Origin: Lingula anatina
Taxonomy: Eukaryota > Animalia > Brachiopoda
Assembly (NCBI GenBank): GCA_051362555.1
Contig: CM120649.1
Coordinates: 18,614,567 to 18,678,566, forward strand
Reading direction: 5' to 3'
Length of the DNA stretch: 64,000 nucleotides
Shown: one piece after another, positions 9,386-21,387 of the stretch
Numbering within the stretch: position 1 is the stretch's first letter
How the letters are laid out: each line of letters opens with the position of its first letter
Position numbers and translations under genes: made by a program
Notes under the pieces: generated by a model
Database searches by the model: none
Told to the model about the DNA's origin: nothing
What the model saw: only the letters and a program-made list of their open reading frames with translations

Positions 9386-9487
9386 ATTAATCTGGCTAAA
9401 CTTGGGGTCTGCCAGATTTGCCATGCTTGGTGCCGCTATGAATACTACAAAAGGGGAAAACTCGGAGGACCGAAGAACCTTAAGTGC
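9386..9487 (-). CDS. CASK: CASK GK-domain alternative exon B (duplicated, likely mutually exclusive with 10869-10949)
   Basis: ttatag|ALKVLRSSEFSPFVVFIAAPSMANLADPKFSQIN|gtaagt. 102 nt, phase 0/0. Confidence 0.9.
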
Positions 9488-9769
9488 CTATAACGGGGGG
9501 AGAGAACACACATGCATTGTGAATTATCAGTTACCACACGACAAAAATTATGCTAAACACCAATGTCCTTGCAAGCTGTAAAATGAAAAGAAAATGACAT
9601 CAAACATCAATAAACAAGTACTTTGTATCCCCAAACCTAAGACCCACTGTGAGAAAAAAAAAAAAAAAAAAAAAAAAATCCCAAACATTCTTCTTCATCC
9701 TATTTTATTTAACTTAGATTTTGGAAAAGATTCCACTGAAGCACTGGGGATGGGTGGGCCTCAAACAAA

Positions 9770-9905
9770 CCCTTAGCAAAATGAAAAGTTTGCTGTAACA
9801 TTGCAGCAATATCAATTGCTACTAATTTTGCAGCCATATTGCAGCTAATTTGCTGCAAATTTGCAAGAAGGAATTGCAATTTGAGGTCTGATATTTTGCC
9901 AAGGG
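9770..9905. mobile_element. Small CCC...GGG TIR element (EnSpm-like MITE); related left end at about 46285
   Basis: CCCTTAGCAAAAT...ATTTTGCCAAGGG flanked by AA/AA. cccttagcaaaatgaaaagttt recurs at about 46285. Confidence 0.5.
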
Positions 9906-10445
9906 AACTGCTCTCCTAGATGGGACAGGTCCATATTTCATTATCGCCCCCACCCCCCTCTTTCCAACTAGATGACCCCAGGTCTAAGAGAGATGATGTT
10001 ACTTGTTTAGAGATGATACGACAACATTTGGTATGGGTGTAGCATGGTACCCTCTTTTAAAAATAATATAAAAACTCCTTAGTAATCTTATTGTTCTCAG
10101 AAGATACTAAAACAAAAAATAATGCCCTTATTTATCTAAAATTTCATCTACACCCCCCTCAAAAAAAAAAAAAAAAAAAAAAAAAAAAAAAAAAAAAAAA
10201 AAAAAATTATTGTCAATTGGTGACAATGGGGTACCATACAACAACCCAGAGAACACCATTACAGTATTACAACATCAAATACTAGCTATTAGTACCTGCT
10301 TGAGGAGTGGACAGGATTGAGTCACCATTCCAACTAAAACAATCTGAATATCAAAATCCGAAATCTATTGGTTCGACAATCCACTTGTATTTCCGTAGGC
10401 TCTCTTACCACAATCAAAGAGTCCCCATCCCCCAGTGTTCTCTGA

Positions 10446-10619
10446 GGGGGCGTCTCGATAGTCCGAAGGTTCATTGGTCCGAAGGTTCATTGGTCCGAAA
10501 AGTGGTAACATTTTCATCGATTTTTTAATCAAGGGTTCATTGGTCCGAAGGTTCTATAGTGAACATTCGGACCAATGAACCTTCGGACTATTGAACCTTC
10601 GGACTATCGCTACGGCCCC
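10446..10619. mobile_element. Foldback-type MITE with internal ~17-bp tandem repeats and an 8-bp TSD
   Basis: GGGGG...CCCC termini. Arms are built of GGTTCATTGGTCCGAA units and their reverse complement. TSD TTCTCTGA at 10438-10445 and 10620-10627. Confidence 0.8.
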
Positions 10620-10868
10620 TTCTCTGACTTGCCCCTCCCCCCCCCCCCCCTTAGCCCCACCCTCACTCCACTCCACCCCATTCCTCAAGCAAATACCCCA
10701 CAAGTGCACCACACCTTGTGCATCACAACAATTAGGGGGTCACAAAACAGCATCTACAAAGGAAGAAAATAAAGGGAAAGGGGGGGGATTTGCTGTTTTT
10801 GTTGCTAGGGTTACAGTTGCCATAGTTACAGTTGCCACAGCGATGACACAGTGATCATATCTGTTTAC

Positions 10869-10949
10869 CTCATGAAATGAAATCATGTCCGGAGCAGCTA
10901 TAAATACTACAAAGGGAAAAAACTCTGCAATGCGCAGAACTTTCAATGC
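10869..10949 (-). CDS. CASK: CASK GK-domain alternative exon A (duplicated, likely mutually exclusive with 9386-9487)
   Basis: tttttccag|ALKVLRIAEFFPFVVFIAAPDMISFHE|gtaaac. 81 nt, phase 0/0. Confidence 0.9.
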
Positions 10950-11671
10950 CTGGAAAAAGATAAGTCAACTTTTATTAATATGAGAAAGAACTTATGCATG
11001 CTTTTCTAAAAAATAAAGTAATTTTTCTTCAATATAAAGATTCTCACGGGTGCTCATGATCGTGAAAAGAATAGGAGGTTCAGATAAAAGACTGGCTCCG
11101 ATGGATGGCCTCTCTTTGAACTCACTGCTTACGATAATATGATAACACAAAAATAAGGCTAAATATAAATATGGGACCAATAATGCAGACACATACTATA
11201 CTGAGTTGAAAAAGATGTATAAAGATTCCATGAAACTGTTTAGAGGCATTACACAGGCTAGGAATCAAATTACAGTATTTGAAATAAAATAAAATAAATT
11301 CTATTTGGAAAAAAATTAAATATTCAAGTGAATATATGTAAATCATTTTCTTCTGTTGATTTACCTTTACCAATAGTGCAATCTGTATATTATCACCTGA
11401 TTCAAAGGATGCAAACATTACATTTATAAATAAAATGCATGAAATGATGTAAATAATTTCAGAAATATCACTTTTACTGAGAGCTTCAAACCAAACATCA
11501 AGTAAAGTGGTATTTTTTCTCTCATTCATAGCTGATGAAATATTTATCTCACTATCTCACAAAGTCCTGCCATCACTTAAATTTCTCAGCAGTTGTCCAC
11601 AAATTAATCTGAGCAACGCAAAAACAGTAACGAATATCTTCCATAACTGTTATCATCATTATTTCAATCAC

Positions 11672-18248: not shown

Positions 18249-19604
18249 CTGGGGAAAACAAACAGATCATAGATGTATAGGCAATACTTTGTACATAACA
18301 TTCTCAGCCTGATACTCTACAATTTCAATCAATAACTGTTAACAATTCAGAATTTAAAGAAGCAAACTATTTCACTTGGATCAAGTTTTGTTTTTCAGTC
18401 TGACTCAATGGACATTCTGACTTTTTTGTATCTTTTATTGTCTGTTTGTTCTTAATTCATCCAAGAATTTCAATAACTTAAAAGGTGAATCATTTGGAAT
18501 TTCTCATTTTTTCAAAACTATTTCAAACAATTGTATCATAAGTTCTGTTTTTGGTTTCGCTAAAGTACAAAATCTGCTGCATTTCTTGCAATGTTTAGTA
18601 ACATTATTAACAAGATAATATCATGTCCATTCAACAAGTCAAGCCATGCAAACCTGAAACAAACAGACAAAAACATTAACCAGATCATTTTATCAATATT
18701 TTTACTGGACCTGAAATAAAATGACATATTTGTGCAAAACAATCTATTAGTGATATATATGCATTCTCAATCTTAACATGCAAAATCCGAACCCTCTGAA
18801 AACATGCAGTTCTAACATCAGAGATGCTGTTTTCTATTTTTGACGGGCCAAAACAAAATTTTGAACTAGATTCCAAATAAGGGCTGTTCAAATATGGAAA
18901 AAATCCAAAAATCCAATCTTTTCAAATAAACTTTAGTATGTATGCATTGAACCAATTCCGGCACATGGATAATACAATGTTACAAAGAAAGCTTTTTTCG
19001 TTTAAGCCAAATGTCTACAAATCAAATCAAATCTGAAGCCAAATCTATGACGAGTTGACAATTAAAAAATGTAAAAATCATGTTTATTTCAGTATTATTT
19101 GAACACCAGTAGCTTCTAGCTATCAAAATGAAAAATTTAAGGAAAACTTTAAATGTTTCTATGGTTTTAACTGAGAAGAAGATGCAATTGTGATTCAATC
19201 TGCGAAGCTCCAGTAAGAGATCGATGCGATATTACATTTCCATCGTTACCATGGTAACTCCTAGCCATTGGGTGAAATCTTCATACATGCTTACAAAAGC
19301 TAGCACATGCCAAAAGAAGTTCACGTTGAAATAGAGAGAGATATTGGTTGCCAACTGAACCCATATACCCTGTGCAGTATTCTAGATTGATTGACACCAC
19401 TTTCTGTTGTTCTATTCCTTACATTCATGTTAATAATTAAGTAATCACAAAAATATTTTTCTAGCCACAAATGTACGGGTTATGAGTACTGCAATGCTGG
19501 CAACCCTGCAGAATAAAATGCACACTATATATGCAACATACTGAATTAAGCATCAAATGCAAGACCTGCATCTCAGTAACAATTTATAGTCCAAACAAAT
19601 TTTA

Positions 19605-19829
19605 GAGAGCATTCCCATAGATTTTTAGATCAATCTATCCCCGTGGGGAGTCTCACTAGATTGTTGTCAGCCTGACCGGCTTAAATGTCTGTCCCGCCTA
19701 CTAAAAGCTGTAAGGGGGTAATTAACTTTTGTGCGTGCTTGGCTCTCGGAACCTGACAGCAATTTAGCATGAACACCCAAGGAGTTAGGTCGATCCGGAT
19801 AGATCGATCTAAATCTATGGGAACCAGTC
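19605..19829 (+). mobile_element. MITE family B (PIF/Harbinger-like)
   Basis: Ends cattcccatagattt..gatc / gatctaaatctatgggaa, TSD TTA/TTA. Highly similar to 27027 and 58348. Confidence 0.82.
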
Positions 19830-20333
19830 TTAGATTTCATCAACCAAAATGCTCCACCGAAATCCTGTCACTTAAAACATACCATGAAAACTTTAAACAT
19901 TTGAAAGTTCTATTTTTATCATTTTTAATCCATGAAACTTTTTTTTTTCCGCATTGAAAAGTATTCACAAGTAAAAATAAGTTTTGTATTCTTCATCCTA
20001 TTCATTCCAAGTCCAATGGAGTGATGGCTTCCTTCAACCACAGGCATGTTTATAACTGAATCAAGTTAAGACCAAACGTCCTGCTTCATAAAATAAGTTA
20101 AGTATGAAAATAGGTCCAAACCTGCTGATCAGCCCAAGACAAACCAGTTTTTCATTTTTGTTGCTACCAGTCAATAGGGTTGTTCAAATTCAAAGGATTT
20201 TATGACATGGAAAAAATACAGCTTCATTTGGTAAAATCCACGAGTCATTACCATACCCAGTACCAAACTGAAGCTTGATCCAGTTATGAAGACACCTGTT
20301 GTTTCCAGTATTATAAAACTTTAAGGTACCCAC

Positions 20334-20419
20334 CAGTAGTCTCTGTAAGTGCTCTATTTGCTGGTTGGCCACACTGATCCCATTAATTTCTCTTATTTCA
20401 TCTCCGACGTGCAGAGTTC
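20334..20419 (-). CDS. CASK: CASK PDZ middle exon
   Basis: gggttcag|(G)[28 protein letters not shown]|gtgggt. 86 nt, phase 1/0. Confidence 0.96.
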
Positions 20420-20887
20420 CTGAACCCAAAATATAATAAAGTCAAATAAGGTAATCTACTGGTCCACCAAAAATACAAAAAACATAAATTTGTATTCCTA
20501 TTGTTTGATTGCAATATATCTGTATTAATAATAGAAAAAGAAAGTAATCCTCATTGTGTTAAAAAAAGACTTACCCTGAAAAATCAAAATCACCAAAACA
20601 TTTTGACTTCAAATAACTCAGTACATACTAATCTAATAACTATATTCAGTAACATATCAATACATTAATCTCAATTTTTAAAAATAGGTTTTGGCCTTTT
20701 TTCTTGTATGATCCTGATCCAATATCTTTTAACCTCGGACTTTGCTATGCATAGCACTGCCATGAAGAGAAATAAATTGATATGTAGTCTCTGTATAATG
20801 TTTCTCAAATATCTGCCGCCATCTTCAATCTATAAACGACTGAATTCCATCTGACCTTGACCCAATTTTATCTGACCTTGTCCTCAC

Positions 20888-20966
20888 CTTGCCTGTGTAT
20901 CATACCACCATGTAGTATACGGCTCACCATACATCTGCCATCATCTAATCTTTTTAATGTGATGCC
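20888..20966 (-). CDS. CASK: CASK PDZ N-terminal alternative exon (downstream copy)
   Basis: cctgtctag|[26 protein letters not shown](G)|gtgagg. 79 nt, phase 0/1. Confidence 0.92.
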
Positions 20967-21308
20967 CTAGACAGGAATATGTAACGGTCAAAATTTACCA
21001 AAAGAACTAAAACTTATTATATAGTTGTTGATAGCGTAACCATGACAAAGAGACAGCCAATCAAAACCAAGCTTTCAAGGGTGCATGTAAAAGTAGTGTT
21101 AATATAAGAACACTGATGAATGGGATAAATTCACAAGACACAAAACTTGAAGCTATCGCTAATTTCACTCAAACCACATCCTGTAAGGTCCCACAGATAA
21201 AGTAAAGGTAAAAAGGTGCTCAGAAAATAAAGAGGGATGAAGTCCATGCAGATGAGCAAATTTGATTGGCTGTTTCCCCTGGTTACCTGTCCCATGTTCT
21301 CCACCCAC

Positions 21309-21387
21309 CTTGCCGGTCAACCATGCCGCCATGCAAAATGCGTGCTACAACACATCGTCCATGCTCATTTATTTTCAGAGTGATGCC
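21309..21387 (-). CDS. CASK: CASK PDZ N-terminal alternative exon (upstream copy)
   Basis: ttttcacacag|[26 protein letters not shown](G)|gtgggt. 79 nt, phase 0/1, same length as 20888-20966. Confidence 0.92.

Follow-up and report, generated by a model that had tools for sequence, protein, structure and literature searches.

The CASK locus of Lingula anatina and its duplicated exons

The gene analysed here lies in a stretch of 64,000 nt from the brachiopod Lingula anatina (assembly GCA_051362555.1, contig CM120649.1, positions 18,614,567 to 18,678,566), hereafter the window. It was identified as the 3′ half of the Lingula anatina CASK gene, on the minus strand, with an SH3 exon 100% identical to that of RefSeq Lingula anatina CASK isoform X3. 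The exons of the window correspond to residues 380–917 of CASK isoform X1, and a Pfam search with the RefSeq isoforms returned the architecture of CASK, a MAGUK protein, consisting of kinase, L27, PDZ, SH3 and GK domains. Three exons, two of the PDZ domain (PDZ-N and PDZ-C) and one of the GK domain, occur as tandem pairs, in which the upstream copy is designated a and the downstream copy b (Table 1). The original prediction, made from the sequence of the window, had described these pairs as carrying intact GT-AG sites, open frames and identical phases, and its coordinates and all of these features were reproduced. Each of the six exons has an AG acceptor, a GT donor and an open frame; phase is the same within each pair, and each copy taken alone keeps the frame. 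All eight single-choice combinations gave an open translation to the natural stop codon, with or without an additional 36-nt exon. Duplication of the whole gene, against which the prediction had also argued, was ruled out by the single copies of the other exons in tblastn searches.

Table 1. Exons of the Lingula anatina CASK gene within and around the tandem pairs, in window positions (nt, nucleotides; aa, amino acids).
Feature	Position	Strand	Evidence
Constitutive exon of 195 nt upstream of the PDZ-N pair (end of L27, linker and start of PDZ)	22675..22869	minus	in 10/10 RefSeq isoforms
PDZ-N copy a, 79 nt (strands betaB-betaC, helix alphaA)	21309..21387	minus	RefSeq isoforms X2, X5, X9, X10
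PDZ-N copy b, 79 nt	20888..20966	minus	remaining 6 RefSeq isoforms
Constitutive PDZ middle exon, 86 nt	20334..20419	minus	AG/GT sites, open frame
PDZ-C copy a, 96 nt: divergent last PDZ strand and PDZ-SH3 linker	18153..18248	minus	5/10 RefSeq isoforms
PDZ-C copy b, 69 nt: ancestral-type 23-aa exon	17508..17576	minus	5/10 RefSeq isoforms
Constitutive SH3 exon, 244 nt	15535..15778	minus	100% identity to Lingula anatina CASK X3
Constitutive HOOK exon, 150 nt	15186..15335	minus	open frame
Constitutive first GK exon, 81 nt	13536..13616	minus	RNA reads, open frame
36-nt cassette exon, GC donor, adds 12 aa	12294..12329	minus	RNA reads; RefSeq isoforms X1-X5
Decayed intronic remainder of partial duplicate of the 203-nt exon	12181..12293	minus	nucleotide similarity past the GC donor
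Constitutive 203-nt GK exon	11672..11874	minus	RNA reads; same length as in mouse (PMC3447378)
GK copy a, 81 nt / 27 aa, minor form	10869..10949	minus	9 entry + 15 exit junction reads; RefSeq isoforms X3, X7, X10
GK copy b, 102 nt / 34 aa, major form	9386..9487	minus	128 entry + 129 exit junction reads
Last coding exon, to the stop codon	8317..8493	minus	RNA reads, open frame

Similarity between the two copies exceeded that of all 2000 shuffles for each of the three pairs. The PDZ-N copies are identical at 18 of 26 amino acids and the GK copies at 43 of 60 nucleotides over their first 20 codons; the similarity of the PDZ-C copies is weak (score 33, about 14 aligned amino acids, 22/45 nt). Synonymous sites are saturated across the pairs (proportion of synonymous differences, pS, 0.75–0.90) against a low proportion of nonsynonymous differences (pN 0.19 for PDZ-N, 0.39 for PDZ-C and 0.11 for GK), indicating that the duplications are old and that the copies have been constrained.

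The exons between the pairs had been predicted to be single-copy, which was confirmed for most of them but not for the 203-nt GK exon. A partial duplicate of this exon begins upstream of it at position 12329 (tblastn E value 4e-4 over 55 codons; 73% over 74 nt), and its first 36 nt are spliced in as a cassette exon whose 12 added amino acids repeat a TT-x motif. Similarity to the 203-nt exon continues past the GC donor of the cassette (18/22 nt) and then fades, and the frame stops after 58 codons. The survival of intronic similarity suggests that this fourth, partial duplicate is young.

Use of the copies in messages

Raw RNA reads of four of nine runs under the Lingula species label (runs X1, X3, X4 and X7, as distinct from the RefSeq isoforms) were mapped on positions 8200–13780 of the window. 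Over the four runs 24 junction reads were obtained for GK copy a and 257 for copy b, both copies being joined to both flanking exons. Reads from the 203-nt exon into copy a numbered 1, 0, 8 and 0 (runs X1, X3, X4 and X7, in this order throughout) and those from copy a to the last exon 0, 2, 8 and 5; the corresponding numbers for copy b were 17, 26, 69 and 16, and 36, 35, 42 and 16. The share of copy a in these joints, 2%, 3%, 13% and 14%, varied among runs (chi-square p 0.026, on small counts). No joint from copy a to copy b and none skipping both copies was present among the 15 best-supported of 19 joints, the weakest of these 15 having about 5 reads. With copy b in about 91% of messages, independent cassettes would be expected to make a-to-b joints outnumber a-to-last joints about tenfold. 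The check by junction reads that the original prediction had proposed thus supports mutually exclusive behaviour of the GK pair, with the downstream copy dominant. Two points weigh against this reading: low-level joining of copy a to copy b may occur, as run X1 covers copy a with reads yet has a single joint into it and none out of it, and the differences among runs may be genetic, run X7 having many fixed single-nucleotide polymorphisms (SNPs) and the tissues of the runs not being stated.

The 36-nt cassette was covered by the same reads. Its two inclusion joints had 0, 6, 24 and 11 and 0, 6, 27 and 12 reads, against 29, 39, 73 and 1 reads skipping it, corresponding to inclusion of 0, 0.13, 0.26 and 0.92. 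The high value in run X7 may be genetic, given the many fixed SNPs of that run. Over the mapped region, the exons of run X7 differ at many fixed positions from both the window and the remaining runs, which suggests a divergent population under the same species label. A hairpin element with 55-nt arms (91% complementary) lies between the GK copies at 10445–10620 and would loop out part of the intron between them; from its read depth of 120–470x on both strands, with loose ends, it was taken to be a repeat found in other transcripts. Another long imperfect inverted repeat is located in the last intron (8856–9107).

For the PDZ pairs, evidence came from protein models. The Lingula protein cluster had 11 members, of which one is a truncated copy encoded on a different scaffold; each of the other 10, the RefSeq isoforms of the present gene, contains exactly one member of every pair. 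The mutually exclusive use originally predicted is therefore upheld by reads for the GK pair, and PDZ-N and PDZ-C fit it at the level of gene models alone. Several observations weigh against strict exclusivity. Exclusive use of the PDZ pairs is predicted from RefSeq models, which are automated and whose combinations are not phased molecules; no short Lingula fragment spanning a PDZ junction was found among 120 matches listed of 335. Both PDZ-C copies are present in 7 of 10 models of Lineus, 2 of 5 of Physella, one of Pomacea and 7 of 32 of amphioxus, and both GK copies in 4 of 7 models of Liolophura and in the single Tubulanus model. Single-model predictions often fuse in-frame neighbouring exons; dual inclusion in the multi-isoform RefSeq sets may be real, and exclusivity may be leaky. 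These models, together with the strong divergence of PDZ-C copy a and the fact that both PDZ-C copies are multiples of 3 and stay open when included together, would also suit a PDZ-C pair that is not strictly either-or, in which copy a would be an in-frame cassette, included optionally alongside copy b or in its absence, and would make the PDZ-SH3 linker longer. We consider this unlikely: dual inclusion of PDZ-C was seen in none of the 10 Lingula models, and the sets of Haliotis, Patella and Biomphalaria (15, 15 and 13 proteins) have one PDZ-C copy or the other, never both.

The original prediction had envisaged up to 2x2x2 = 8 PDZ-SH3-GK cores. The data do not establish this: six of the eight combinations are present among the 10 RefSeq isoforms (PDZ-N a with PDZ-C a and GK a, and PDZ-N b with PDZ-C b and GK a, are missing), short reads cannot link the PDZ choices with the GK choice, and the upstream GK copy is minor. 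The alternative of two coordinated programmes (neural and non-neural, for example), in which the choices are linked and few of the eight cores are really made, can be entertained tentatively. PDZ-C a occurs with GK b in 10 Patella models and PDZ-C b with GK a in 3, against 1 other, the Biomphalaria numbers being 6 and 3 against 1 and 1; in Lingula, run X1 has the lowest values for both GK copy a and the 36-nt cassette, and runs X4 and X7 have higher ones. However, RefSeq isoform lists vary one event at a time, so that such counts are not linkage, and all four PDZ-N/PDZ-C combinations are found in the Lingula models and all four PDZ-C/GK combinations in Haliotis.

Possible means of enforcing a single choice differ among the pairs. 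Inclusion of both PDZ-N copies, or of neither, shifts the frame and terminates the test construct early, at codon 99 or 73, and such messages would be removed by nonsense-mediated decay; as judged from the exon sequences, this type of exclusivity would apply to the PDZ-N pair only. Dual inclusion of the PDZ-C or GK copies stays in frame and open, as does double skipping, and exclusivity of these two pairs would therefore have to come from regulated splice-site choice. Steric exclusion by a distant branch point does not fit the introns between the copies (342, 576 and 1381 nt, with AG-exclusion zones of 40, 83 and 65 nt for PDZ-N, PDZ-C and GK, respectively). All six donors are ordinary GT donors and none is of the U12 type by comparison with the U12 consensus, which leaves no U2/U12 incompatibility. 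Scans of the window introns for inverted repeats and duplexes gave no convincing docking site: four duplex comparisons (of the PDZ-N pair and of PDZ-C introns I1-I2) were within the range of 8 shuffles, and four others beat all of 4 shuffles by only 0.3–2.2 kcal/mol. The best candidate duplex between the introns flanking PDZ-C copy a pairs positions around 20053 with positions around 18150, ending at the donor of that copy (−31.9 kcal/mol, with 1 of 8 shuffles stronger). With these mechanisms not fitting or not established, regulated choice by splicing factors is the default reading for PDZ-C and GK. Most likely a cell-type splicing factor would flip the default from the downstream to the upstream copy, a mechanism that may leak.

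Distribution of the pairs across Spiralia

Exon forms were tallied in proteins of 30 named spiralian genera, 29 of which had the GK exon and 29 the PDZ-C exon. A GK pair, consisting of a 27-aa form and a form of 32–35 aa, was found in 16 of 29 genera: Lingula, the nemerteans Lineus and Tubulanus, the chiton Liolophura, eight gastropods and the bivalves Mytilus, Pinctada, Sinanodonta and Mya. The script total was 17, from which Macrostomum was dropped, its 27-aa form being derived from its 32-aa form by truncation. Another 12 genera have a single form, short in Helobdella and long in Owenia and Capitella. The short GK copy is exactly 27 aa long, ends in E or Q and, as in Lingula, comes first in all five other genera whose models show tandem copies; among 491 proteins, two GK copies in one model were confined to lophotrochozoans. 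The PDZ-C pair was found in 12 of 29 genera, including Lineus, the flatworm Macrostomum, Pinctada, a cuttlefish and seven gastropods, with the long copy upstream; Batillaria, which would have made 13, was left out, its 23-aa form resembling a hybrid model. Counterparts of the long upstream PDZ-C copy are accordingly present in nemerteans, molluscs and Macrostomum. A true PDZ-N pair was found in Lingula alone (1 of 30 genera), the scope being isoform sets with no other brachiopod or phoronid among the matches. Haliotis and Macrostomum each have two N forms that were not counted as pairs, the difference being one residue and lying between species or loci. An ostracod model with a repeated whole PDZ domain was treated as a prediction artefact.

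The persistence of counterparts across phyla also bears on the suggestion that the upstream copies are decaying pseudo-exons spliced as noise. A share of 2–3% for GK copy a in two runs, and a fourth duplicate decayed beyond its first 36 nt, would be in keeping with it; against it stand the open frames and saturated synonymous sites of the upstream copies, their retention in several phyla and the recurrence of GK copy a at about 13% in two runs from different studies. We regard this suggestion as highly improbable, and for GK and PDZ-C it is largely refuted.

Exon-peptide trees had 32 and 29 columns, too few to settle the origin of the copies. The short GK copies of gastropods and bivalves form one clade (support 95/91), and the spiralian PDZ-C copies of 23 aa are gathered in a group (SH-aLRT 81) from which the long copies stand apart. 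A single origin is the simpler reading, given how constant the copies are in length and order, and on these sequences the PDZ-C and GK pairs were likely inherited from an early spiralian ancestor, with the PDZ-N pair a likely later addition. Against inheritance, Mytilus, unionids and three annelids carry the 23-aa PDZ-C copy alone, and approximately unbiased (AU) tests reject neither a clade of the Lingula copies (p 0.21 for GK, 0.68 for PDZ-C) nor a clade of all 27-aa copies (p 0.16). Separate duplication of the same exons in each phylum, making the pairs convergent, would agree with the failure of these tests to reject the Lingula copies as sisters, with the position of an amphioxus PDZ-C pair among outgroups, by which the PDZ-C exon appears able to duplicate independently, and with the frequency of convergent exon duplication in general (PMC9741552). 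We nevertheless judge it improbable, as the short GK copy of brachiopod, nemerteans, chiton, gastropods and bivalves has 27 aa, an E/Q end and, where the order can be seen, an upstream position, and the two groupings just described point the same way. As read from the protein models, two of the three pairs are common to Spiralia rather than peculiar to this genome, older and wider than first thought. A pre-Cambrian date of the pairs rests on the divergence times of the phyla.

Upstream of the pairs, tblastn detected no kinase or first-L27 exon in the window. As positions 29590–64000 (minus strand) are without either, the intron upstream of the L27 exon is likely longer than 34 kb. An ATG-started open frame of 437 codons at 33222–31912 (minus strand) runs up to a GT donor whose phase fits that of the L27 exon near 29590, and it could serve as an alternative first exon of a CASK that lacks the kinase; it had no Pfam match and no BLAST match among the fetched proteins, and is absent from the 10 RefSeq isoforms. 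Short isoforms that join novel N-termini at the same L27 exon are found among the models of Patella, Mytilus and Owenia. The protein XP_013409282 (473 aa), encoded on another scaffold, is almost identical to the N-terminal half of Lingula CASK, has a short insertion ahead of its first L27 domain and is probably an uncollapsed haplotype. An element of about 230 nt with inverted ends, resembling a miniature inverted-repeat transposable element, occurs in three copies (78–84% alike) at 19600–19833, 27022–27244 and 58365–58555.

Predicted protein effects and relation to known systems

The exons were placed by alignment to CASK, PALS1 and MPP1 structures, by Pfam limits and, for rough strand and helix placement, with a low-confidence AlphaFold model (mean pLDDT 59.9 and 61.3, pTM 0.37 and 0.42 for two isoforms; the PDZ-C a segment, unfolded in the second model at pLDDT <50, was treated as uninformative). 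Using the customary names of PDZ and GK elements, PDZ-N was placed at betaB-betaC-alphaA of the PDZ domain, PDZ-C at its last strand and the linker to SH3, and the GK exon at a helix and a strand of the core and at the lid-side loop that comes after them. The invariant groove residues are present in both PDZ-N copies. At one column, where 74 of 75 other distinct N exons carry His, copy a carries Asp, and copy b has an unusual Arg-Leu after betaB. The PDZ-SH3 linker is 9 aa longer with PDZ-C copy a than with copy b, and the GK lid-side loop is 7 aa shorter with GK copy a. The duplicated exons thus touch the PDZ and GK modules, which had been singled out as ligand-binding, but the residues that vary in PDZ-C and GK are mostly in the linker and lid-side loop and not in the binding cores.

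Such swaps would keep the folds but change the PDZ-SH3 hinge, the GK lid-side loop and the betaB-betaC/alphaA surface beside the peptide groove. They are predicted to tune closure of the PDZ-SH3-GK supramodule, and hence affinity for neurexin-type tails, and from the structural placement this tuning appears to be their likeliest role. High-affinity neurexin binding needs a closed PDZ-SH3-GK unit, in which GK contributes to the site, and patient variants that break closure cause disease (PMC12666738). Against such a role, splicing in the linker of human CASK altered neurexin binding only slightly (PMC8208546). Taken together, we put at roughly 0.78 the probability of three tandem duplicates of which the GK copies are alternatives by junction reads and the PDZ copies likely so by gene models, with PDZ-C and GK of early spiralian and PDZ-N of later origin, and with supramodule tuning as their role.

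The Lingula CASK pairs resemble the known class of homologous mutually exclusive exons, also termed tandem exon duplication-derived substitutions. Dscam1, Mhc and 14-3-3 likewise have several either-or exon sets in one gene, associated with clusters of docking sites; CASK differs from them in having pairs only, with no established docking or selector duplex. Human substitutions, 236 events of which are catalogued (PMC8373072) and whose origins have been described (PMC9741552), resemble the CASK pairs in being old, conserved, homologous tandem exons with matched phase and one copy per message, and in their repeated independent origin in the same gene family. They are unlike Lingula CASK, in which two pairs have copies of different length that can be co-included in frame, and the lineage is Spiralia. 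CASK had 0 matches in the human event table of PMC8373072, in which the controls PKM, SNAP25 and CACNA1C were found, and was absent from the main text of PMC9741552. This absence from the human catalogue agrees with the original prediction, which knew of no such exons in vertebrate CASK. Titles and abstract beginnings among the literature matches listed, which left subscription journals mostly uncovered, described no duplicated CASK exons. CASK is also treated in a supplement to a paper on Aplysia synapses (PMC9282427).

Human CASK varies the same PDZ-SH3 hinge by splicing, through cassette exons 19 (69 nt) and 20 (36 nt) in the linker, with no variant lacking both (PMC8208546). Unlike the Lingula pair, these exons insert extra linker residues behind a single PDZ-C exon, of which human models have one 23-aa copy, and they can be included together. 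Despite its 69 nt, exon 19 is presumably not a PDZ-C duplicate. The GK region of mouse CASK has single 203-nt and 84-nt exons and, after the former, exon E24a of 120 nt, described as mammal-specific (PMC3447378). E24a is similar to the Lingula cassette in having a non-canonical donor and in adjoining the conserved 203-nt exon in the GK region; the cassette differs in that it has 36 nt, precedes the 203-nt exon and is derived from it. Amphioxus has two homologous PDZ-C copies of 23 aa, which occur alone or together in its models, and its GK region carries, at the position of the Lingula 36-nt exon, an insert of 12 aa that starts with HTT. It differs from Lingula in that both PDZ-C copies are 23 aa long and ancestral-like, and in that GK and PDZ-N pairs are absent in its 32 proteins. 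From their position among outgroup sequences in trees, the amphioxus PDZ-C copies are probably independent of the spiralian pair. Insect models have short inserts after the PDZ-C exon, and vertebrate and amphioxus models have 9 and 11 aa after the GK exon.

A broader proposal, which we put forward with reserve, is that the PDZ-SH3 linker and the lid-side loop of GK are two tunable hinges of CASK, both spliced variably in every major bilaterian lineage: by conserved pre-Cambrian either-or pairs in Spiralia, by independent duplications of PDZ-C and of the GK start in amphioxus and by unrelated inserts at the same places in vertebrates and insects. Lingula might have added a third switch at the PDZ groove, and cell-type isoforms would then differ in closure and neurexin affinity. 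The surprise is limited to the extent that the isoforms are already in automated annotations. With the pairs, a scaffold gene of Spiralia joins the known ancient switches built from duplicated exons, and amphioxus provides a likely convergent case. As a synaptic scaffold CASK is single-copy, and long-selected swaps at its hinge, GK loop and PDZ groove would show parts that are tunable without breaking the module. Molluscs used as neurobiological models, among them Lymnaea, Biomphalaria and Haliotis, have the same pairs in their protein models, and the effects of the swaps are testable there.

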